IMG/VR virus record: IMGVR_UViG_2778261573_000004
Coordinates: 1 to 44,824 of that record
DNA: 44,824 nucleotides
Source of the DNA: a virus
Lineage: Duplodnaviria > Heunggongvirae > Uroviricota > Caudoviricetes
Strand: one strand, 5' to 3'
Numbering within the stretch: the stretch's first letter is position 1; the number at the start of each line of letters is the position of its first letter. Of the stretch, positions 1 to 43,153 are shown piece after piece. The notes beneath the pieces were generated by a model. It saw only the letters and a list, made by a program, of their open reading frames with translations. It was not told the DNA's origin and searched no databases. The position numbers were made by a program, and so were the translations under genes.

Positions 1-549
1 TCAGCTAGCTGGAAACTTTTTATACAGAGTTGAGAGCCCTACTCCATACGTTTTTGATACGCTTTGTCGTGATTCACCGGTTGCCATCCGCTCCCCCATT
101 TCCCGCCATTGCTCATCCGTGAACTTAGGCCTGCGACCACCAACTCGCCCTTTTGCCCTGGCTACGGCCAGCCCTGCTAAGGTACGTTCGCTATTAAGAT
201 CAGATTCATATTGTGCTGCGGAAAGGATGTTACGAAAGTTATAGCGGCCGCTGGCTGTTTTGAGATCCACGCCATCGGTAATACTGCGGAAGTTGATACC
301 CTTTTCCTGTAACTGCTGGAACATCAACAGCGCATGCAGAACGTTGCGGCCTATCCTGTCCAGCTTCCAGACCACCAGTTCATCCCCCGGCTGCATAGTG
401 GCGATCAGCCGTTTTAGAACCGGCCGATTCGATTTCCTCCCGCTGGCATGCTCTTCAAAAATTTTCTCACAACCCGCTGACTTGAGCGCCGTTAGTTGCA
501 ATTCAGTGTCCTGGTGGTTTGTTGATACTCGGGCATAACCGTAAATCAT
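1..549 (-). CDS. pin: Serine recombinase, DNA invertase (Pin/Gin/Hin/Cin family)
   Basis: Protein from MIYGYARVSTNHQDTELQ has the resolvase-type N-terminal catalytic Ser motif and a C-terminal HTH; ATG at 549-547 with RBS AGGAGA upstream; lies next to an invertible tail-fibre segment. The longer ORF to 708 is rejected as an upstream extension. Confidence 0.9.
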   Translation of the reverse strand: MIYGYARVSTNHQDTELQLTALKSAGCEKIFEEHASGRKSNRPVLKRLIATMQPGDELVVWKLDRIGRNVLHALLMFQQLQEKGINFRSITDGVDLKTASGRYNFRNILSAAQYESDLNSERTLAGLAVARAKGRVGGRRPKFTDEQWREMGERMATGESRQSVSKTYGVGLSTLYKKFPAS

Positions 550-608
550 GGGATTTCTCCTGTTATGAAAACAGGAGAAACGGCGAAGCATCACCAGATT
601 TTTGATGG

Positions 609-634
609 TTATAAAAAAGGTTGGTTTGGGAGAA
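609..634. other. Invertase crossover site, left copy (cix/gix-like)
   Basis: Reverse complement reads TTCTCCCAAACCAACC..., sharing 14 identical nt (TTCTCCCAAACCAA) in inverted orientation with the site at 2554-2579; both sites encode the same peptide LGLGE in the two alternative fibre reading frames. Confidence 0.75.
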
Positions 635-1075
635 GCGGCAAAACGAAATGTGGGCAACGGGGAAAACCAAATCCCTGATATGTCTTTCTGGACGGTTACT
701 GGTGGCAATGGAAATTTTGTGATTCGTCAACCTGACGGGCTAATCATTCAGATGGTTACTGTAAGTATAAGCGGTCCAGTGGCGATGAATGGAATGACTG
801 ATAATGCTTATGCCATTACAGGTTCTAATAAGTCTTATATTGCCACAGCCACATTGCCCTTTGTATTTCCTAATAAGGTGCTGGGCGTTATCCCTCTGGT
901 ATCAACAACAGCTTATGGTGGTGTATCCAGTAATATTACAGGTTCATACGCGACGGCGGTTTGTTCTTTTGCCGCTGTTAGGGGGAATAATACGATTGTG
1001 TTCAAAGTCGACAAACCACTGAATGCAGCCTTTCCTTCAGATACCAGCGTCTCAGCGTTAATCATTGGACGGTAA
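621..1075 (+). CDS. Alternative tail-fibre C-terminal variable segment (silent orientation, expressed only after inversion)
   Basis: ORF 602-1075 has no independent start context but begins with the peptide KVGLGE encoded by the crossover site; after inversion it would fuse in frame to the constant N-terminal part of the fibre gene at 2580-2850. Confidence 0.6.
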
Positions 1076-1077
1076 GA

Positions 1078-1521
1078 ATGAACTCAGTATTCTTTTCACC
1101 CGCAAGTAAAAGTTTTTATCTGCAAGAATTGTTTCCAGAATATGAGGATGCGGGAACGCTTCCTGATGATGTTATTGAAATTACCAGAGAAACATATGAG
1201 CAATTTCTTGGGCTGCATCCAGAAGGGAAAGAAATTGGCGCTGACAGTTCAGGACGGCCAATATGGATTAATTCCCCGCCGCCTTCAAAAGAGGATGAGA
1301 TGCTGGCGGCTGAAATGAAAAAGATATCTTTGGTTTCAGAAGTCAATACCTACATCAATACCCATCAGTGGCCTGGCAAAGCTGCTATTGGTCGTCTGAA
1401 AGGTTACGAGCTGGAACAATATAATTTATGGCTGGATTATCTGGACGCACTGGAACTGGTTGATACCTCCAGTGCTCCAGATATTGAATGGCCTACGCCT
1501 CCGGTAGTTCAGGCCAGATGA
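1078..1521 (+). CDS. Tail fibre assembly chaperone, alternative copy (Tfa/U-prime-like)
   Basis: 147 aa ending in the conserved Tfa-type C-terminus (IEWPTPP); immediately follows the alternative fibre segment inside the invertible region. Confidence 0.65.
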   Translation: MNSVFFSPASKSFYLQELFPEYEDAGTLPDDVIEITRETYEQFLGLHPEGKEIGADSSGRPIWINSPPPSKEDEMLAAEMKKISLVSEVNTYINTHQWPGKAAIGRLKGYELEQYNLWLDYLDALELVDTSSAPDIEWPTPPVVQAR

Positions 1522-2098
1522 CATCCGACGCGGTGCTGGTATCTGTTGCAGTCACCGCGTCAATGTAATCCAGCACAGCGTTAAGCCGGGTTGTTTCTGC
1601 CTGCGTCAGCTTCCGCCCGGCCTGCAATTTCAGCTGAATCAGACTAATGGAAGCCATAGCAGCATCAATCAGTGACTGGCGCCGTACTTCTGCCGCGTCT
1701 ACTGCGGCGTTATGCTGTGCCTCAGTATCGGTCACCCATTTCTCACCATCCCATTTATCGTATGACGTTAACGGGGCGATAGTGGTTGTATTTTCAGGGT
1801 AATCACCCGGAACTGTGATTTCTTTTGATTCTCCTGTTTCGGTGCTATAGACGATTTCACCGCGATGGTCTGGCACATATTCCCATGAGTTAAAATCTGC
1901 AGAACGGCAAATTGCATAACCAGCTTTATATGAGCCAGGAGCATCTAAACAGGAACATGCCGGGATACCGACACCCACAGCAAGATATTCAGTTGATGTG
2001 GAAATATATTCCCGTGTTTCACCATCATAATTATAAACGGTAATGTCTCCGGCCTTTGTGGCGATGAGTTCATTATTTAATACAGCTTTACTTATCAT
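1493..2098 (-). CDS. Tail fibre assembly chaperone (Tfa/U-like)
   Basis: 201 aa, C-terminal VIWPELPEA motif typical of tail fibre assembly proteins; overlaps the fibre gene stop by 4 nt; inside the invertible segment. Confidence 0.75.
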   Translation of the reverse strand: MISKAVLNNELIATKAGDITVYNYDGETREYISTSTEYLAVGVGIPACSCLDAPGSYKAGYAICRSADFNSWEYVPDHRGEIVYSTETGESKEITVPGDYPENTTTIAPLTSYDKWDGEKWVTDTEAQHNAAVDAAEVRRQSLIDAAMASISLIQLKLQAGRKLTQAETTRLNAVLDYIDAVTATDTSTASDVIWPELPEA

Positions 2099-2850
2099 GC
2101 AGCCCTCACAATATAATTAAAGGCGATGTTACGGGAGCGGGTTTCAGATGCTGTGCGAACTGAGCGAGATGCGTCGAATGTCCAGTTATAAGCGCCATAA
2201 CCCTCAATAATTTCGGTTTCCTTTAGACCTGTAGATAATACTTGCCCATGTTGACTAAATGGCCCTGAACTAAGTACGTCTCTAAAAAGCTGGGTACGCC
2301 CAAAAGAACCAACAATATTCTGAATTGCATCATTCTGTGCAGATAATAAGTTACGACCAGAGTCAATCCCGCGCCCATCATCCCAGCCACGAATAAATTC
2401 ACCGCGTAAATCTGGTAATTTTAATGTTGGGTAAGCCTTTGCCAGATTTGGGTACTTTTCAGAAGAAAATACTGCTCCGTTACATTTTAGCCACCCCGTT
2501 GGCGGAGTGGCTGAAGGCCACGGAACAGGCACACCAACCGGTAATGCAGAGCCTTCTCCCAAACCAAGGTTTGTGAGAGCCGTAGAAATCGCCGCTGCAC
2601 CATCTGATTTGATATCGGCAAATGGGTTTGCACGGCTCAGTGTGAGTTTTTGAATGGCTTTTAAAACCTGAGTCATATCGTTAATGTCGAGCGCCAATCC
2701 TGCTGACTCTACGATATGCGCTAACTCTTCCTGCATGGCATTAAACGCTGCTGCCCGCAGCCTCGTTGCGGCAATACCACCAGCAACACTTCCATCAGTA
2801 TATTTGCCATCCTGCGTTGCAGTGGCTTCGACTTGCCCGATTCGGAGCAT
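2095..2850 (-). CDS. Tail fibre protein, constant N-terminus plus currently expressed variable C-terminus with tail-collar-like motif
   Basis: 251 aa; the crossover site at 2554-2579 falls inside the gene (peptide NLGLGE); C-terminal part carries WLKCNGAVFSSEKYPNLAKAY...LPDLRGEFIRGWDDGRGID, resembling phage tail-collar fibre domains. Confidence 0.8.
   Translation of the reverse strand: MLRIGQVEATATQDGKYTDGSVAGGIAATRLRAAAFNAMQEELAHIVESAGLALDINDMTQVLKAIQKLTLSRANPFADIKSDGAAAISTALTNLGLGEGSALPVGVPVPWPSATPPTGWLKCNGAVFSSEKYPNLAKAYPTLKLPDLRGEFIRGWDDGRGIDSGRNLLSAQNDAIQNIVGSFGRTQLFRDVLSSGPFSQHGQVLSTGLKETEIIEGYGAYNWTFDASRSVRTASETRSRNIAFNYIVRAA
2554..2579. other. Invertase crossover site, right copy (cix/gix-like)
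   Basis: TTCTCCCAAACCAAGGTTTGTGAGAG, a 12-2-12 imperfect palindrome with central AA, typical of hix/gix/cix sites; inverted copy of the 609-634 site. Confidence 0.75.
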
Positions 2851-2901
2851 AGTTAATCCTCACTTAGTGTTAAGCGATAAAATCAGAGGGGGAAATATCA
2901 G

Positions 2902-3495
2902 TTATGAATAATTGAAAATGATGTTCAGATGGGATGGGGCAATTTTGTTGATTGAACACTCCAGTTGTTTATTGCCCCACGATGCGAGCGGATCTCCGCA
3001 GTAGGACGCGCCAGCAAGCGAATACTTGATCGTTGTTTGTGGCGCATTTATCCGCCAGGTAAATGGCCACTCGTCACCGTTAAGCGCATCACCGCATACT
3101 GACATGCCACTCATAGCGGGCCGGAACTGTGTGATAGTGATGGTATAACCAAGAGCTGCAGCCACCCGGATGTAATAATCGCGGTTCAGGCCGCCGGTGC
3201 TGATTAACTTTGCCACCACGGCGCGCTGGCGATCGCTGACGCCACCGGATTCACCAATCGCACAATCATCTGGTAACCCCAGAGAGCTTTCCCATTCTGA
3301 CAACATTACCGTCGCTGTAGGGGGAAAAGCACCAGTAATCAGGCTTTGCGCATCGTTGTCAGAACGCTGAAACGCGCTGCCCAGTGCCCGTAATACCGCA
3401 GCCTGTACCGTTCTTTGCGACCGGGGCCACGCCCTGCCCGTCGGTAGCAGCGCACCAAGCGCACCGGCATAATCATTTTTTGAAAAGAGGCTCAT
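2902..3495 (-). CDS. Tail protein, Mu gp48-like (DUF2313-like)
   Basis: 197 aa ORF between baseplate J and the tail fibre, the position of Mu gp48; 4-nt overlap with the upstream gene. Family assignment is from memory of this gene order and is not verified. Confidence 0.55.
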   Translation of the reverse strand: MSLFSKNDYAGALGALLPTGRAWPRSQRTVQAAVLRALGSAFQRSDNDAQSLITGAFPPTATVMLSEWESSLGLPDDCAIGESGGVSDRQRAVVAKLISTGGLNRDYYIRVAAALGYTITITQFRPAMSGMSVCGDALNGDEWPFTWRINAPQTTIKYSLAGASYCGDPLASWGNKQLECSINKIAPSHLNIIFNYS

Positions 3496-4634
3496 ACAAA
3501 ATTCACCCCGCCAAGCACCGGAATTTCGCCAACAGCAAAGGTGATATTGGCCGTCGGAGAGTTAAGAATATAGCCCGTCGTGCCGCTAACACCGCCGATA
3601 CTCCCGTTAATATCAGAGAGGTAAACTTTCCCAGAACCATCAGGGTTAGCTTCATCAAAAAACAGCGCCGTCAGCGCGTCTTTTATCCCCTGAACTGTGG
3701 TGCTGTCGGCATTTTTGATCCCAGAGATTTCAATATTGATGACTTTCTTGATCGGGGAACATACGAAAACAATGGCAGTGTCTGTCTGCTGCGGATAGAT
3801 GTGGTCGGCGACAGCGAGCTGGTCTCCGGTGGCTTTAACAGCCCCCCAGTCCTCAAGTTGGGATATTCCGTCGGTACCGACCGGAAACCCACCATTGTCA
3901 TTCCGATCACACATGATATACACGCCAACGGTCCCGGCCCCGTTCAGACGCCGCTTTACCCACGCGCGGGTGACGCCCGAAACCTCAAGCGCCCATTTTT
4001 TATAATCGGCGTCGCTTCCACCCTGAGGCGGATTCTGCCATGCCAGCAAGCCACGACTGCGAAAATCCTCTTCCGTTTCAATATCGGCTCCGCCGGTCGC
4101 AGCGGACAGTAACGTTACCTGTGGATCCACGCCAGCAATATTCGCGTCCAGGGTCATTATGGTCCCGGCATCAGCGTTACCGCGCGCGCCTCCACCCGTT
4201 ACATCACTGGTAATATCCGGCAGTATGGCCGTCACCGCGACGATACCAAATCCATCTGCCTGAATTTTAAGATCTGCATCCGTCCGGTACTGGTATCCGT
4301 CCCCGCGGTTAATGATCGAGCCAACAGGGATAATACAGTCAACACTGCCACTAGCCTGTACCGCAGGCGACTTCGCCGCTGCAGCTGGTTTTCTGAATAC
4401 CTGCTTAAGGGCCATCCACCCGGCGAGATACTCATCGGTAGAGGTAAACGGGTTTGTCTGCAGGGCAATATAGTCAAGGTAGGCGTAATGCAGATGCCCC
4501 ATCCCCGCATCCATGTCAGCCAGTACCTTCAGGTTCGCGAAGCGCAGGAGCGCACCAACATCCTCAAGCTCCGCCTGCATAAATTTCCGGTTTCCGTCGC
4601 GGAGTTCGCTCAGCGTCGGTCGTTTAAACGGCAT
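3492..4634 (-). CDS. Baseplate J-like protein (Mu gp47-like)
   Basis: Start taken at MPFKRPTLSEL (ATG 4634-4632), directly after the stop of the upstream gene; size and position match baseplate J. The 5-prime ORF extension to 4772 is rejected. Confidence 0.75.
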   Translation of the reverse strand: MPFKRPTLSELRDGNRKFMQAELEDVGALLRFANLKVLADMDAGMGHLHYAYLDYIALQTNPFTSTDEYLAGWMALKQVFRKPAAAAKSPAVQASGSVDCIIPVGSIINRGDGYQYRTDADLKIQADGFGIVAVTAILPDITSDVTGGGARGNADAGTIMTLDANIAGVDPQVTLLSAATGGADIETEEDFRSRGLLAWQNPPQGGSDADYKKWALEVSGVTRAWVKRRLNGAGTVGVYIMCDRNDNGGFPVGTDGISQLEDWGAVKATGDQLAVADHIYPQQTDTAIVFVCSPIKKVINIEISGIKNADSTTVQGIKDALTALFFDEANPDGSGKVYLSDINGSIGGVSGTTGYILNSPTANITFAVGEIPVLGGVNFV

Positions 4635-4635
4635 A

Positions 4636-5073
4636 TTAACGTTGCTCCCATATCCAGTAAAACCTGAATTCCTGCCAGTCCTTCCCCGGTGCCTGATAGC
4701 GGATAATGAGATTGAGCCGGTCAGGCAGGACGATCCTTGCAACAGGAATAACCTCGCTGACAACGCCATCAACCTTTAACCAGTTGAGCGCTTCACTCGA
4801 GTATTCCTCCGCTTTTTTTGCTACATCCGGGGTCAGTTTTTTCCGCCGTAGCAGCCACAGCCGGGATCCCAGTTGGGATTCCTCCCCGGAATCCCCCCAC
4901 CAGCCGCGGCGATCGCTATCCTCATAATTATCGTCAGCGCGCGCCAGCCTGTCGGTAAACAGGCTGTCCAGTATTGCAGTCTGTAAATCGTTCCCCGTGG
5001 TGAGTTCACCCAGCCCTTTCTGCCAGTCAGCAAACATCTCATCCACATTCCAGAATGAAGCGATGTCACTCAT
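4636..5073 (-). CDS. Baseplate protein, GP46 family (Mu gp46-like)
   Basis: 145 aa, conserved order between the gp45-like and gp47-like genes; overlapping start/stop with neighbours. Confidence 0.65.
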   Translation of the reverse strand: MSDIASFWNVDEMFADWQKGLGELTTGNDLQTAILDSLFTDRLARADDNYEDSDRRGWWGDSGEESQLGSRLWLLRRKKLTPDVAKKAEEYSSEALNWLKVDGVVSEVIPVARIVLPDRLNLIIRYQAPGKDWQEFRFYWIWEQR

Positions 5074-5654
5074 GTCACCTGATCCTCTGTTTTTTGGCTG
5101 CGGATATTGTCATTGCCACTCTGGGCATTTTTAACCACATGATCATGGTCATTATGTGCATCCCGCAGCTCTTTCAGTGTTCGGGTATTGGTTTCACAGT
5201 TATCAACAATGTCACCCGTGCACCTCAGGATCGGGGTATTTGCAAGGATCCCCTGGCTGGCATTGATGGTCACGTTAGTGGCGTTATTGACCTCAACATT
5301 CTGGCCCTTTGCATCCAGGAAGATCCCCTTCTCCGTCAGGAGAATATTAAGGCCCCACTGGTTATACATGACCGTTTCGCCCGCTTTCAGGCCTGTATGA
5401 CGGAACCCCTGATGGTTGGACGCAATTACCACCGCGCTGGAACGATCACCGCCAATAAAAGCCAGAACCACGTCAGTCCCTGACGGCAGGCCGGATGAAA
5501 AGCCAAATTCTGCCATCCGCGGAGCGCTGGCCACCTCCAGCGGAGTCTGGTACTGGATAGACTGCACCACCCCACCATCTTTCATAGCCGTGATCCGGCC
5601 AATCCCCAGCATGCCGGCGATCCTGGTCGCTGCATGTTTAAATAGTTGCTTCAT
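5070..5654 (-). CDS. Baseplate assembly protein V / spike (Mu gp45-like)
   Basis: 194 aa with a Gly/Val-rich beta-rich core; position between the gpD-like and gp46-like genes. Confidence 0.7.
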   Translation of the reverse strand: MKQLFKHAATRIAGMLGIGRITAMKDGGVVQSIQYQTPLEVASAPRMAEFGFSSGLPSGTDVVLAFIGGDRSSAVVIASNHQGFRHTGLKAGETVMYNQWGLNILLTEKGIFLDAKGQNVEVNNATNVTINASQGILANTPILRCTGDIVDNCETNTRTLKELRDAHNDHDHVVKNAQSGNDNIRSQKTEDQVT

Positions 5655-6736
5655 GTATTGAATCCCGCCAGGTTCTGGTAGAAGGCATATGGCTGAACGG
5701 AGAATGCTTCAGGCGGCATCAGCGTCATGCGTGCATGGGTGCCGTAGTCATCGCGCATATAGGTGACTTCTGCCAGTAGCAATTCAGTCTTCGGCAACCG
5801 TAAGGTGGGAAGATCAACGGGGATCAATGTGTTTGGTTCCCACAGTTTCCCGTCTTTATCCCGCCAGGAATCGATGGTTACCGAGAGCTGTTTTGAACGT
5901 CCGTACCGCCGGTTCATTTCCCAGTCGATCGCACTTTGTGCCTGTTGAGTAGCCATCAGGGTACTTTCCACAATCGATATATGTTTTCGGTACCGCATGC
6001 GGGCGGCCTCCGGATCTCTCGCCGTTGCCAGAGTCACAGCGTCATAGGCCGTATCAGGCGAATACCCTGCAATTGGAGAAACGCTCATTGATACACCGAC
6101 ATAATCTGAAAACCTGTCAGCCATCGATTTGCGGTAGTATGCCTGCTCGACATTTACCCCTTCGGCTATCCCACTTGCCGCACGACGTGTTCCCACCCGG
6201 GTCAGTAACAGGTTTCCATCGGGCTGATCGTAGTAAAGCAGAGCAGACCATCTGGCCACCCGATCGATGACTTCTTGCGGAGACTCACCCCAGTTCAGAG
6301 TGAACTGGGGTACCTTCACAAGTTCATCAACATCCGTGGTTACGGTGATGCCGTAGTAGGATGCCAGGCGAGAAGCAATTTCAAGCGCATTACTGGCATT
6401 GATGACGTTGTTAGGCCACTCGGCTGAGCAATCCACCAGGTCCTGACATTTGCTCCTGCCCGTGGCGCGGACCTCATGGCGGGAGCGCGATAGTGCGGGT
6501 TCCCAGTCATCAACATATCCCGTCAGTGTCAGATCATCTCCGATACGAACTTCACAAGACATTCCCTCTTCAACGAGTTGACGATCTTCGTTGCCAGGGA
6601 AGTAATCCATTAGCCCAAGATCGAAATCAGAGGGAAAACGCTCAATACCCCGCGTTACCCGGACAGAATCCCACCCCTCGATGATTTTGCCGTCGACCGT
6701 CAAAGAAACAACATCCAGATCGCTGTCTGCATTCAT
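5651..6736 (-). CDS. Tail protein, phage late control D-like (Mu gp44/P-like)
   Basis: 361 aa; N-terminus MNADSDLDVVSLTVDGKIIEGWDSVRVTRG is typical of gpD/gp44 baseplate hub proteins. Confidence 0.8.
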   Translation of the reverse strand: MNADSDLDVVSLTVDGKIIEGWDSVRVTRGIERFPSDFDLGLMDYFPGNEDRQLVEEGMSCEVRIGDDLTLTGYVDDWEPALSRSRHEVRATGRSKCQDLVDCSAEWPNNVINASNALEIASRLASYYGITVTTDVDELVKVPQFTLNWGESPQEVIDRVARWSALLYYDQPDGNLLLTRVGTRRAASGIAEGVNVEQAYYRKSMADRFSDYVGVSMSVSPIAGYSPDTAYDAVTLATARDPEAARMRYRKHISIVESTLMATQQAQSAIDWEMNRRYGRSKQLSVTIDSWRDKDGKLWEPNTLIPVDLPTLRLPKTELLLAEVTYMRDDYGTHARMTLMPPEAFSVQPYAFYQNLAGFNT

Positions 6737-8136
6737 TGCCTCAGTACCTTCATGGTTGTCGGCATAAACGCCGGATGCGGTACGCGCGCTTCCTGTACCA
6801 GTTCATCTGCACGGGTGGCATCCTGGTATAATCGGTTTGCCAGCGTCAGCGCCGGAAGCGGCTGAGCGGTAGTAACCTGCAGAAGCTCGCTCAGACCAGA
6901 AGCACGCTCACTCATCGTAGAAAGGAATGCCGATCTGACGGCGAGAAGCGCGTTATACATATCATCGTCCGCGCGGTCTCCAGCCAGAACCAGCGCCGTA
7001 TCAAGTTGCACAGAAACTCGTTGAGTTAACTCTTCTGCCTCGTCTGTACTGGCTGGTCTGGAGTCCGCAGCGGCACTGGTCATGGCACCAGTACATAGCA
7101 CAACAATCAGCGTGTTCATGGTCGCCGAAATCGCTTTGCTGCTGTCGGACTGCTGGTACTCCGTGCTGATTGAATTAGCCAGTTTTTCCAGCGCTGTGAT
7201 TCGGTCATTAACGCTGCCGGCGCTGTTAAGAATTGCGTTTACCACGTCGGCGACGCCCTGGACAAACTCATCAGGTGTGTTGGAGCTGCTAAGCTGGCTC
7301 GACCTGTCGGTAACATTTTTCCGGTCCATTACCGACTGGGCTGTTACCTTGTCAGCCAGTGCTCTCTCATCATCCACATCAGCAACTGACGATTTGCCAG
7401 CAACAGCAGAGGAACTACCGCCCACAGAGCCTTTACTGTAACGTCCGTACCGGGTATTCCCGAACGTGGAGTTCAGGACATTGCTGAGATTCGTGACCTG
7501 ACTGATGGTGCTGTCAACCATGTTAGTCCAGAACGTGACCGTGCCTCTGATGGTGTTTATAGCCTGTGTGACACCGCGGATTTCACTCTTAACTCTGGCA
7601 ATCGTGCTCAGCACAGCAGTGCTGACCAGTTTCAGATAGTTGGTTTTCACCGTGGCGCCTGCAACGGTACTGCCCGTGACAGCAAACACTTTAAGCCCTG
7701 ATTCAATTGCCATCAGGGTAAATTCAAATACTCGCCCGTTCTCCATCGAACCGGAAATACGCAAACCATTCTCAGGGATGGAAACCGTTAATTCGCCCAG
7801 TGTCGGATGGACAAGCGTACCGCTACCTTTTTGTTCACAGGCTTCAATCAGTGACTGGCGCTGCGTGATAGCATCGCCGCCGCCGTAAACCTGGCTGTTC
7901 TGGATCAAGAAACCGCGAATAACAAATCGCCGTGTTGCCCGCCCGATATCCTCTATCCAGGCTGTATCACGGTAGGGATATTCATGTACCGCCTGACGTC
8001 GGCCGTGGCTCCCTTCCTCAGCAACAATTGCAAATGGCACACCTCTGAATGAGCTGGGCCGTAACTGCCCCTGCCAGTCATCGCTGGTATCTCCCCCCAA
8101 AAGAGAAGTTATTGCGTCCTGGATAATTGACGGCAT
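6733..8136 (-). CDS. DNA circulation protein (Mu N/gp43-like)
   Basis: 467 aa; start ATG 8136-8134 with RBS GGAGG 4 nt upstream (the ORF track begins one codon earlier at GTG); position after the tape measure gene as in Mu. Confidence 0.7.
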   Translation of the reverse strand: MPSIIQDAITSLLGGDTSDDWQGQLRPSSFRGVPFAIVAEEGSHGRRQAVHEYPYRDTAWIEDIGRATRRFVIRGFLIQNSQVYGGGDAITQRQSLIEACEQKGSGTLVHPTLGELTVSIPENGLRISGSMENGRVFEFTLMAIESGLKVFAVTGSTVAGATVKTNYLKLVSTAVLSTIARVKSEIRGVTQAINTIRGTVTFWTNMVDSTISQVTNLSNVLNSTFGNTRYGRYSKGSVGGSSSAVAGKSSVADVDDERALADKVTAQSVMDRKNVTDRSSQLSSSNTPDEFVQGVADVVNAILNSAGSVNDRITALEKLANSISTEYQQSDSSKAISATMNTLIVVLCTGAMTSAAADSRPASTDEAEELTQRVSVQLDTALVLAGDRADDDMYNALLAVRSAFLSTMSERASGLSELLQVTTAQPLPALTLANRLYQDATRADELVQEARVPHPAFMPTTMKVLRQ

Positions 8137-28344: not shown

Positions 28345-28816
28345 GTTGCCAGTTTTCAATGAAGATAATGCGGGCAAAAAAAGCCTGCTCGGACGAACAG
28401 GCATGAAAAATAACAATACCGTCAAGGAGGTGGCGCCGGGTGCCTCCCGGTGGAACAGCCCCAGCCGACTAGTTCCGCGCAAACAAACCTGGACAAAAAA
28501 GTTTGACTGGTCGCCCCTCCGCATAGGGGGATTCACCACACTAAAAATTTAACATCTGATGAAACTCGTTTCAATGCTCTACGACGATGTGACAGGGGTA
28601 TTGATGCAATGCAAATAGACCTACTCTCGGAGCAAGGATAACAACTTTTCCGTACTCTCTTCTGTAAGTTCGAAGTGGATCAATTCTTCGCCATTCTTGA
28701 GAATGTAGAGTTCTTTACTCCCTTTATCATCAGTAGTGATATCAAGGGCATAAATATCAGGCTTGCATAGCGTAATGCCGCCTGTCGTAACTAGCGTCTT
28801 ATTAACGAGGTGACTC

Positions 28817-29289: not shown

Positions 29290-29979
29290 TTAATCCAGTT
29301 TTGCAAGACTTGAGTCTAAATTTGTCGCCTTTTGTTGTGAACGTGATCGCGTTACCTGCAAAAGAGAATCGCTATCAAGGCGCCGCAAGGTGGTTTTCAT
29401 CTCCTCCCACCGTTCTGTAAACGTTTCTGACCAGTTCTTCGGGGTCACTCCGACCATGGCGGCAAGCTTTTGGTATTCATACGTCTCACGCCCTGCCAGC
29501 TCTGCTTTCACGTCCTGAGCCGCGAGCCAGACAAGCTTCTTCAGGCGCTCCATCGTTTTGCCGGCCACCTTCTTCGCGCCGAGCTGCTCCCGGAACTCTG
29601 CCCACGCCCATTGAGTGATTTCCACCTGATAGCACCAGCGCACGTTCTCGCTATAGTTCCATAGCAGCCACGCTTTCTGATGGTCTTCAAGCGACAGAAC
29701 AGCGCGGCGCCACGATGCGGTCCCGTACTCTACCGGGCCCACCAGCGCGATAGACGAGCCCTTAGCGCGGGACTGGTTGCCGCTCATCGGCTGGCCGTCA
29801 GGATTGACCATGCGCTGCTTATCCTTGTCGAATACCTTTTTCCGGCCCCGACTCCGCGCCGTCGCGGTGAATTGCGCGTTCTCGGCGAAAGCTACCAGCT
29901 GCCCTTTCGTCGCCCCGCTGAGGTCTGCGGTCGCCACAATGAGCTGCTGACGTACGTATTCCAGTTGCTGACTGTTCAT
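29290..29979 (-). CDS. Putative late-gene regulator / antitermination protein Q-like
   Basis: 229 aa in the canonical Q position (after rusA, before the terminator and lysis genes); assignment is mainly positional. Confidence 0.45.
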   Translation of the reverse strand: MNSQQLEYVRQQLIVATADLSGATKGQLVAFAENAQFTATARSRGRKKVFDKDKQRMVNPDGQPMSGNQSRAKGSSIALVGPVEYGTASWRRAVLSLEDHQKAWLLWNYSENVRWCYQVEITQWAWAEFREQLGAKKVAGKTMERLKKLVWLAAQDVKAELAGRETYEYQKLAAMVGVTPKNWSETFTERWEEMKTTLRRLDSDSLLQVTRSRSQQKATNLDSSLAKLD

Positions 29980-42117: not shown

Positions 42118-42272
42118 CTCACGCTCACGACGACATCAGGGTTGGCGCGGTGCGCCTTCCCTGGCTCAAAGAGAAAAACGGATGGTTGCTGCCGTGGGGT
42201 GAAGTCGTTACCAACCCACTGAAGGCGCAACGACTGGCTGAAGAACTTAACGAAAAGCAGGTGGCAGCATGA
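42114..42272 (+). CDS. Small ORF (52 aa; below the ORF-track size cut-off)
   Basis: ATG 42114 overlaps the upstream stop; its stop overlaps the Dam ATG (ATGA). Confidence 0.3.
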   Translation: MTHAHDDIRVGAVRLPWLKEKNGWLLPWGEVVTNPLKAQRLAEELNEKQVAA

Positions 42273-43153
42273 GATACGGCTCTGTTTGCAGTGGAGCTGC
42301 GGCGATGCCCATAGAAGAACCGGCGCTGCGCAGCTGGCAGCGCCCGTTCCTTAAATGGGCTGGCGGCAAATATTCGCTGCTGCCGGAACTGGATCGTTTG
42401 ATCCCCGCAGGTAAACGCCTTATTGAGCCTTTTGTGGGTGGCGGCTCGGTGTTCCTTAACTCAGACAAGCACGAACGCTTTCTTCTGGCTGACGTCAACG
42501 CTGACCTGATTAACCTGTATCAGATGCTGGCGGTGGTCCCCGACTCGGTGATCTATGAGGCAATGAAGGCATTCAGGCATCTGAATGATGCCGAAAACTA
42601 CACGGTAATTCGTGAAGCATTCAACGCGCAGCGGCTGGATGCGGTCGAGCGCGCAGCAGCGTTCCTTTACCTCAACCGGCACTGCTTCAACGGGCTGATC
42701 CGTTATAACCTGGACGGTTTTTTTAACGTCGGCTTTGGGAAATATAAAGCGCAATATTTCCCGGAAGAAGAGATCAGGGCATTTAAGCGGAAGGCTCACG
42801 CATGCGTATTCATGAATGCAGGCTTCAGGCGCACGCTCGCGCTGGCAGGTGATGGTGACGTCGTTTACTGCGATCCGCCTTATGAGCCGCTGCCCGGCAC
42901 CGCTGGTTTCACTAACTATGCGGCTGGTGGGTTCTCATGGGATAGCCAGGTAGAACTTACGGAAAGCTGTGTGGCAGCCCACCAGCGGGGGGCAAAAGTG
43001 GTGATCAGCAATTCTACCGCTCCGCGCGTAATTGAACTTTACGAACAGCACGGCTTCACGCTGCACCGCGTCAGTGCTCGCCGGGCTATATCCAGCAAAG
43101 GCAGTACCCGCGAAACAGCGAGTGATGTCGTAGCCACTTTGGGAGTGCAGTGA
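42269..43153 (+). CDS. dam: DNA adenine methyltransferase (Dam/D12 class N6-adenine MTase), orphan
   Basis: FVGGGSVF (AdoMet-binding FxGxG) and DPPY catalytic motif in the correct order; no adjacent restriction endonuclease. Confidence 0.9.
   Translation: MRYGSVCSGAAAMPIEEPALRSWQRPFLKWAGGKYSLLPELDRLIPAGKRLIEPFVGGGSVFLNSDKHERFLLADVNADLINLYQMLAVVPDSVIYEAMKAFRHLNDAENYTVIREAFNAQRLDAVERAAAFLYLNRHCFNGLIRYNLDGFFNVGFGKYKAQYFPEEEIRAFKRKAHACVFMNAGFRRTLALAGDGDVVYCDPPYEPLPGTAGFTNYAAGGFSWDSQVELTESCVAAHQRGAKVVISNSTAPRVIELYEQHGFTLHRVSARRAISSKGSTRETASDVVATLGVQ

Follow-up and report, generated by a model that had tools for sequence, protein, structure and literature searches.

In phage Mu, inversion of the G segment determines whether the constant fibre part Sc is fused to Sv or to Sv', each of which has its own chaperone (U or U'). 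The Mu segment is about 3 kb long, is bounded by 26-bp sites and is adjoined by an invertase gene, with the gp44-48 baseplate genes upstream. The C segment of phage P1 with its invertase Cin, and Hin of Salmonella with its hix sites, involve the same recombinase family and the same site architecture, although Hin flips a promoter rather than swapping coding ends. Cin, Hin and related invertases can replace one another, and the genes of Hin/Gin/Cin/Pin-type invertases contain in their 5' part a recombinational enhancer to which Fis binds. The cryptic prophage e14 of E. coli K-12, located at icd, carries a P segment in the order ymfQ-stfP-tfaP / tfaE-stfE-pinE. Inversion of this segment, which is homologous to the one described below, has been shown experimentally (PMC4272514, PMC12529663). 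PinQ and PinR, from the cryptic prophages Qin and Rac, are also small serine invertases; they are reported to act in inversion on sites of this kind (PMC12529663) but have no adjoining fibre segment.

The window, by which we mean the whole 44,824-nucleotide stretch of DNA analysed here, holds a prophage that adjoins yciI/tonB and whose structural, lysis and regulatory genes look complete. Its head and early genes are lambda-like (a lambda-type terminase, portal, protease, gpD and gpE, together with Q, cI and O-type early genes), and to this extent its first-pass annotation as a lambdoid phage with lambda-like head genes was correct. That description was incomplete, as the fibre sits on a contractile, Mu-like tail and baseplate with sheath, tube, DNA-circularisation protein, GP46, Baseplate_J (gp47) and gp48. 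The combination of a lambda-like head with a Mu-like tail is not unusual, since e14 and SfV have the same. A megablast comparison of the structural region with sequenced phages gave no close relative (coverage at most 5%).

The gene order of the fibre locus is identical to that of e14 (Table 1). Both loci have YmfQ, a fibre with a constant part of about 95 codons, two opposed pairs of fibre end and Tfa, a 29-nt overlap between the convergent tfa genes and an invertase, and both prophages combine a Mu-like tail and baseplate with a lambdoid early region. The N-terminus of StfP has the same layout as the constant part in the window (...MLQEEL...LSRxNPFxDIKSDG...NLGLGE). The two prophages differ in their chromosomal position, in their variable alleles and in the invertase, which is only 55% identical to PinE. 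Compared with Mu, the invertible segment measures only 1.95 kb, the constant part has 94 codons rather than about 170, the core dinucleotides are TT/AA where gix has TC/GA, and the head and early genes are not Mu-like. In P1, cin lies on the opposite side of the segment from the invertase gene of the window.

Table 1. Features of the fibre locus (positions in the window)
Feature	Position	Strand	Details
Serine DNA invertase gene, Din/Gin-Hin type	1..549	-	182 aa; Pfam Resolvase 3.6e-39 and HTH_7 1.5e-9
Hairpin in the invertase leader	553..581	-	12-bp stem, 5-nt loop; 3' arm holds Shine-Dalgarno AGGAGA just upstream of ATG at 549
Invertase-proximal crossover site	609..634		TTATAAAAAAGG-TT-GGTTTGGGAGAA; core 621-622; natural inversion breakpoint maps here
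Silent alternative fibre C-terminus, gp53-like	620..1075	+	151 codons; open frame; Pfam Gp53-like_C 24.4 bits (slightly below the 24.9 cutoff)
Silent tail-fibre assembly chaperone Tfa	1078..1521	+	147 aa; Pfam Caudo_TAP 6.4e-27
Tfa chaperone, TfaE-like, predicted expressed copy as sequenced	1493..2098	-	201 aa; Pfam Caudo_TAP 2.1e-31
Variable fibre C-terminus, collar type, currently fused	2095..2567	-	Pfam Collar 3.4e-15
Fibre-internal crossover site	2554..2579		TTCTCCCAAACC-AA-GGTTTGTGAGAG; core 2566-2567; encodes TNLGLGE; natural inversion breakpoint maps here
Constant fibre N-terminus, outside the segment	2568..2850	-	94 codons plus 1 nt
Mu gp48 / YmfQ baseplate protein	2902..3495	-	Pfam Phage_Mu_Gp48 1.2e-32; immediately upstream of the fibre gene

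Only the 5' part of the fibre gene is constant, and it lies outside the segment; the segment itself contains two alternative 3' parts in opposed orientation, each followed by its own Tfa/U-type chaperone. As sequenced, the whole fibre ORF (2850..2095, minus strand) encodes a product of 251 aa, and flipping the segment in silico produces an in-frame fibre of 245 aa. The silent fibre end lacks both the constant N-terminal part and a fibre start codon of its own. The two opposed gene pairs were already recognised in the first-pass annotation, and all of their ORFs exist with the expected domains. Two of its boundaries have shifted: the silent frame had been placed at 621-1075 but begins at 620, as 621 is out of frame, and the constant part, taken to be 2580-2850, extends to 2568 when set by the crossover point. 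The collar-type end matched a short tail fiber (9CUY, 1.3e-26) and the tip of T4 gp37 (2XGF, 2.9e-15) in PDB sequence searches, which gave no match for the gp53-like end or for Tfa. The region of the 201-aa Tfa has about 89% nucleotide identity to the tfaE region of K-12. Upstream of the gp48/YmfQ gene lies a Baseplate_J gene (Pfam). Terminators predicted across 1-3600 were at chance level (5 against 3.2), and tRNA and Rfam scans gave no match within the segment.

Each of the two 26-bp crossover sites has a 2-bp core flanked by imperfect half-sites of 12 bp, as in Mu gix, and the sites are inverted relative to each other, with the same core dinucleotide in each (TT and AA, which are reverse complements). 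They match the pix sites of e14. The e14 site beside pinE reads TTTTCATAAACG-TT-GGTTTGGGAGAA, so that its inner half-site and core are identical to those of the invertase-proximal site; the fibre-internal site matches the e14 site within stfP at 24 of 26 positions. The outer half-site of the invertase-proximal site (TTATAAAAAAGG) deviates from the usual ...AAACC. Both sites had been proposed at these positions and in this orientation, and this is confirmed. The 14-mer TTCTCCCAAACCAA, previously described as their common core, is present at both and occurs nowhere else in the window even with up to 2 mismatches allowed (2 occurrences; shuffle mean 0.27), although the exact inverted repeat is really 15 nt (621-635 / 2553-2567). 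This is the longest within 1-3600, a length reached in only 1 of 300 dinucleotide shuffles of that region. LGLGE had been read at both sites. It is encoded at the fibre-internal site; the silent copy reads VGLGE as sequenced, and LGLGE arises there only after crossover at the TT/AA core. Further crossover sites, as in a shufflon or a Min-type multi-inversion system, were ruled out by the presence of just these two matches in the window.

Both isomers of the same prophage exist in separate public E. coli assemblies. One assembly (L014) agrees with the native window at every position across 7850 nt (100% identity), and the strain behind the run SRR6440994 matches the window at 100%. Another assembly (L011, GCA_041679445.1) is collinear with the flipped window across 7850 nt, at 99.73% identity and without gaps; aligned to the native window it breaks up into three parts, of which the one covering 621-2567 is inverted, and these overlap only in the 15-bp core. 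The 251-aa and 245-aa fibres are exact matches to the NCBI proteins WP_172820603.1 and WP_252362707.1, respectively. Both orientations, whose detection the first-pass annotation proposed as a test of the switch, are present in public data. These exact matches came from an exact-protein look-up and from Logan/NCBI contigs; among complete E. coli genomes, no record covered at least 80% of window positions 1-3500 in the native arrangement. Further isomer pairs with an identical invertase protein were seen at the same yciI locus (L005 against L009 and L001, and L005 against L010). At the invertase-proximal junction, 57 of 5426 complete E. coli genomes have the collar-type start and 43 the type seen in the window. 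A query for the flipped right junction, built from the alleles of the window, gave no match reaching 80% coverage, as gp53-type alleles diverge quickly. The same query led to L005.

Taken together, we consider it about 90% probable that this locus switches phage host range by site-specific inversion, in the manner of the e14 P segment and the Mu G segment. Its earlier assignment to the class of the Mu G, P1 C and e14 P segments agrees with the order of the genes, with an alternative fusion that stays in frame, with a chaperone for each fibre end, with sites of the gix/pix type and with a serine invertase that is intact. The fibre gene would be the last of a minus-strand late operon, and its constant N-terminal part would attach to the Mu-type baseplate, with the variable C-terminal part lying inside the 1947-bp invertible segment (621-2567). 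In the sequenced orientation the collar-type C-terminus and the 201-aa Tfa would be expressed, and in the opposite one the gp53-like C-terminus and the 147-aa Tfa. The adjacent small serine recombinase is predicted to bind both sites, cut at the identical AA/TT cores and rotate the strands, and reversal of the segment would then fuse the other C-terminus in frame at the common LGLGE codons. A lysogen population would in this way release virions with two alternative receptor-binding fibres. These presumably recognise different receptors; the unrelated domains of the two ends (Collar and gp53-like) are only suggestive of different host ranges. The mechanism itself is that of a textbook phage DNA switch.

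The invertase gene abuts the segment, as had been noted, and its product falls within the 180-195 aa usual for the Din type and has the corresponding layout, a resolvase catalytic domain at the N-terminus followed by an HTH at the C-terminus. Residues 1-181 align with the Gin structures 3UJ3/4M6F (E 1e-56). A substitution of the catalytic serine would have counted against the switch, but Ser9 is intact in the alignment with Gin and Pin, as are the catalytic Arg and Asp residues, R7, the NRP arginine and the motifs YARVSTN, NRP, KLDRIGR, GGRRPK and LSTLYKK (STLYKK), the minor-groove (GGRxPK) and recognition-helix motifs included. The description of the segment as Pin-controlled is inexact: identity of the enzyme is 55% to PinE, 52% to Cin and 51% to Gin, against 77% between Pin and Gin. 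By this comparison it belongs to a lineage separate from Pin and is not a PinE ortholog. PinQ/PinR-type enzymes are more distant (about 35%; phage 2H10 homologue). The helix-E region is strongly diverged. At the positions which we take to be Fis sites from the hin enhancer, such sites being degenerate, the putative proximal one is 13/15 identical to gin and the putative distal one only 9/15 with the flanking G and C lost, compared with 13/15 for pin and cin. We dropped a search for the Fis consensus (G-N13-C, AT-rich in the centre), as it fails even on the accepted gin and pin positions.

We infer that the resident invertase is the catalyst; it would presumably need Fis and an enhancer, although the distal Fis-site position is poorly conserved. 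Invertases of the PinE, PinQ or PinR type elsewhere in the host could have flipped the segment in trans. It seems unlikely, though, that the resident enzyme is inactive or irrelevant and that such co-resident Din-type invertases do all of the work. The invertible segment here is the P segment of e14, inner half-sites included, which PinE, PinQ and PinR all invert (PMC12529663), and the divergence of the resident enzyme from PinE, in helix E and at the putative distal Fis site would also suit this explanation. However, PinQ works on these sites with just 38% identity to PinE (PMC12529663), and an identity of 55% is therefore no obstacle. The resident invertase retains every catalytic and DNA-binding motif, and the identical protein is kept beside invertible segments, in both orientations, in many genomes.

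The switch might instead serve mainly the host in the lysogen, with alternative fibre fragments blocking the adsorption of other phages. This has a precedent in e14, of whose P segment the present one is an allele, and where inversion yields StfE2, which blocks T2 adsorption (PMC12529663). We regard it as quite unlikely here, as this prophage, unlike e14, has complete-looking structural, lysis and regulatory genes, and a virion function is the simplest reading. In addition, the variable ends differ from the K-12 alleles, and the fibre gene lies in the late operon, with sigma-70-like sites across 1-3600 at the chance level (5 found, 4.7 in shuffled sequence). That the locus is a frozen relic, a static mosaic formed by homologous recombination between fibre genes without current inversion, is extremely improbable: degenerate, locked derivatives are known (L006, with a truncated segment and mutated sites, and mEp237, with mismatched core dinucleotides), but the window has intact copies of both sites, of all four ORFs in the segment and of the invertase, and a 99.7%-identical prophage carries the segment exactly inverted, the breakpoints falling within the 15-bp core.

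The invertase is 100% identical to WP_000639140.1 and to that of phage mEp237 (JQ182730). In mEp237 the site beside the invertase gene is conserved too, as are the first 66 nt of the segment, with a nucleotide identity of about 95%. Unlike the window, mEp237 has annotated HK97/HK022-type tail genes (central tail fiber, stf, cor) and no opposed fibre/Tfa pairs. A second site-like sequence inside its stf is probably a relic, since its core dinucleotide is different. The leader RNA of the invertase gene (535-610, minus strand) folds at -24.6 kcal/mol (z = -5.1; 0 of 200 shuffles equally stable), and its hairpin may keep invertase translation low. We entertain, as a doubtful proposal, that this enzyme is an uncharacterised lineage serving a P segment identical to a PinE-served one, and that its regulation may differ from that of the classical enzymes because of the weak or absent distal Fis site, the diverged helix E and the hairpin burying the ribosome-binding site. 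If so, in E. coli with several prophages the invertase of one prophage would flip the fibre segment of another and vice versa, and the crossover sites would be joints where whole host-range cassettes swap between unrelated prophages.

Beyond correct annotation the significance of the locus is small. Annotating the silent fibre end as a free-standing 'hypothetical protein' or 'gp53-like' gene should be avoided, assemblies of this prophage may legitimately differ by a 1.95-kb inversion, and phage-host prediction should credit two receptor-binding proteins to each such prophage. The boundaries of the segment also provide a clean case of host-range cassette exchange between prophages, a principle already described for tail-fibre genes. 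Between the crossover sites, identity to the P segment of L003, an e14-like prophage that has a true pinE and whose tail module is complete, is 99.8-100%; outside them, nucleotide identity to the same prophage is only 44-60% for ymfQ, the invertase gene and the constant part of the fibre, and is lowest for the latter (44%).

Both orientations of the tail-fibre segment occur in nature, and this is the decisive result. Inverting positions 621-2567 in silico joins the silent fibre frame to the 94 constant codons to give a 245-aa fibre, a product with an exact NCBI entry (WP_252362707.1), as has the native 251-aa product (WP_172820603.1). The contigs of both entries carry the same prophage adjoining yciI. 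Among E. coli sequences at this locus, L014 matches the native window at 100% along 7850 nt. L011 (GCA_041679445.1) runs collinear, without a gap, with the window flipped in silico (99.73%), but aligns to the native window in three pieces, with 621-2567 inverted and the overlap between pieces confined to the 15-bp core. The first-pass annotation had expected a genuine switch to be found in both orientations, and across public genomes it is.

Further isomer pairs with an identical invertase protein at the same locus are L005 versus L001 and L009, and L005 versus L010, the last agreeing at 98.5% across the whole segment. A census of the invertase-proximal junction in 5426 complete E. coli genomes returned 57 collar-type starts and 43 of the window's type, counts that are approximate because some cassettes have the same type on both arms (e.g. 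ECCWS199) and a few low-identity matches are other invertases. Related prophages in E. coli ECCWS199, EC529 and E01 (H13-15, H76-78 and H175-177) match the native right junction and also the flipped left junction. Their cassettes are seemingly collar-type on both arms, so a count of junctions does not reflect orientation alone.

Genes and crossover sites of the invertible segment (site sequences as half-site-core-half-site)
Feature	Coordinates	Strand	Domain or sequence
Serine invertase, 182-codon ORF	549..1	minus	Resolvase + HTH_7
Invertase-proximal 26-bp site	609-634		TTATAAAAAAGG-TT-GGTTTGGGAGAA
Silent fibre end, open frame	620-1075	plus	Gp53-like_C, score slightly below Pfam cutoff
Chaperone ORF	1078-1521	plus	Caudo_TAP
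Chaperone ORF	2098..1493	minus	Caudo_TAP
Fibre ORF, 251 aa	2850..2095	minus	Phage tail Collar domain
Second 26-bp site, within the fibre ORF	2554-2579		TTCTCCCAAACC-AA-GGTTTGTGAGAG

The frames and domain matches bear out the proposal of two opposed pairs between the sites, with each fibre end followed by its own chaperone ORF. Among solved structures, the 251-aa fibre finds matches in a short tail fibre and in the tip of T4 gp37, and RefSeq labels homologues of the silent end gp53-like. LGLGE had been read at both sites, which holds for the native fibre frame; the silent copy as sequenced encodes VGLGE until, on inversion, the constant side supplies the C completing the Leu codon.

Each site consists of a 2-bp core flanked by two imperfect 12-bp half-sites, and the TT and AA cores are mutually reverse-complementary. 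The common 14-mer reported in the first-pass annotation stands as to its places and its uniqueness (no third copy in the 44.8-kb window with up to 2 mismatches permitted; shuffle mean 0.27), but the exact inverted repeat is 15 nt, not 14. This repeat is the longest in 1-3600, and its length was matched by 1 of 300 dinucleotide shuffles. Taken alone, the length statistic is modest support, and the pair is judged conclusive because of where the sites lie and their identity. Alignment to known sites, suggested earlier as a check, was positive: the e14 prophage of E. coli K-12 has CTCTCGAAAACC-TT-GGTTTGGGAGAA in stfP and TTCTCCCAAACC-AA-CGTTTATGAAAA beside pinE, the fibre-side site of the window is identical to the stfP site at 24 of 26 positions, and the inner half-site plus core is the same sequence in all four sites. 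The Mu gix site has the same form, but its core is TC/GA.

Invertase residues 1-181 align to Gin crystal structures (E 1e-56). Alignment to Gin/Pin shows that Ser9, the conserved Arg and Asp, GGRRPK and STLYKK are all kept, and the catalytic-serine substitution earlier named as grounds for rejecting a switch is absent. The description of the segment as Pin-controlled did not survive: the enzyme shares only 55% identity with PinE (51% with Gin, 52% with Cin), whereas PinE and Gin share 77%; its sequence matches that of the phage mEp237 invertase at 100%. From what the family does, Ser9 would cut at the AA/TT core, the subunits would rotate and the ends would be religated. Of the putative Fis sites in the invertase gene, placed by the positions in the hin enhancer, the proximal one is conserved (13 of 15 positions as in gin), but the distal one is not: it agrees with gin at 9 of 15 and no longer has the G and C on its flanks, where pin and cin keep 13 of 15. 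Flipping may be the work either of this resident invertase or of a trans-acting Pin-type enzyme; PinQ/PinR, 38% identical to PinE, invert e14 (PMC12529663).

Whichever enzyme acts, the observation is confirmed and the reading as an invertible tail-fibre switch is supported. The sites, the in-frame fusion, the intact invertase motifs and natural isomers breaking within the core agree with the Mu G/P1 C/e14 P type first proposed. The element is of a well-understood kind, its sequences are already public, and inversion of the homologous e14 segment has been demonstrated experimentally and published (PMC4272514, PMC12529663).

An e14-like prophage with a true pinE (L003) has a P segment that matches the segment interior at 99.8-100%, whereas its invertase gene, constant fibre part and ymfQ are only 44-60% identical to those here, the change falling exactly at both sites. 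One cassette is therefore coupled to two invertases and two fibre N-termini, and the crossover sites therefore double as cassette-exchange joints. Judged by these sequence comparisons, prophages appear to exchange whole putative host-range cassettes there. Likeness to P2-like phages, HK97 and HK106 in their fibre ends likewise breaks off at 2576-2580.

The crossover site lies at these positions, as does the LGLGE joint. Across 1366-2580 (collar-type fibre end and tfaE), DNA identity is 87-91% to the fibre ends in P2-like pro483, HK97, HK106 and Klebsiella phages, which are unrelated and without invertase.

The invertase ATG (549) is directly preceded by a hairpin of 12 perfect base pairs and a 5-nt loop (553-581, minus), and the gene's Shine-Dalgarno AGGAGA falls in the 3' arm; the fold of 535-610 has -24.6 kcal/mol (z = -5.1), and the equivalent hairpins of pinE and gin are weaker. 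This hairpin could hold down invertase translation. E. coli EC2641 (2512-4351) carries a locked derivative, in which mutations have changed both sites and the truncated segment retains one Tfa and a fragment; its chimeric invertase matches the window type exactly over the initial ~65 aa and is Pin-like thereafter. In mEp237 (5001-5687 and 7608-7633), the identical invertase, the adjoining site and the first 66 nt of the segment are followed by msgA and an HK97-like stf, whose TNLGLG codons fall at a gix-like site. This pair is probably a non-functional relic because its cores differ (TC/GA in stf, TT on the invertase side).

The proposed lambdoid phage with lambda-like head genes is borne out by GpA terminase, a lambda-family portal, S49 protease, gpD and gpE, together with lambdoid early and lysis genes (Q, O, cI-type repressor, NinI, Rz, endolysin). 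The tail genes are of a Mu-like contractile type (sheath, tube, DNA-circularisation protein, baseplate assembly protein, GP46, Baseplate_J (gp47), gp48/YmfQ). The same combination of modules is documented for e14/SfV/SfI (PMC3636060), and the pairing of a lambda-like head with an invertible fibre is therefore not new. Elsewhere in the window, an Rfam STnc100 sRNA match (28372-28568, minus; 84.5 bits, gathering score 47) lies downstream of the Q antiterminator gene (29290-29979), a ClpP-like SDH-type serine protease homologue (PF01972; 25131-26033, minus) sits amid the lysis genes, and a D12-class (Dam-like) N6-adenine methyltransferase (42269-43153, plus) is found close to the integrase end.
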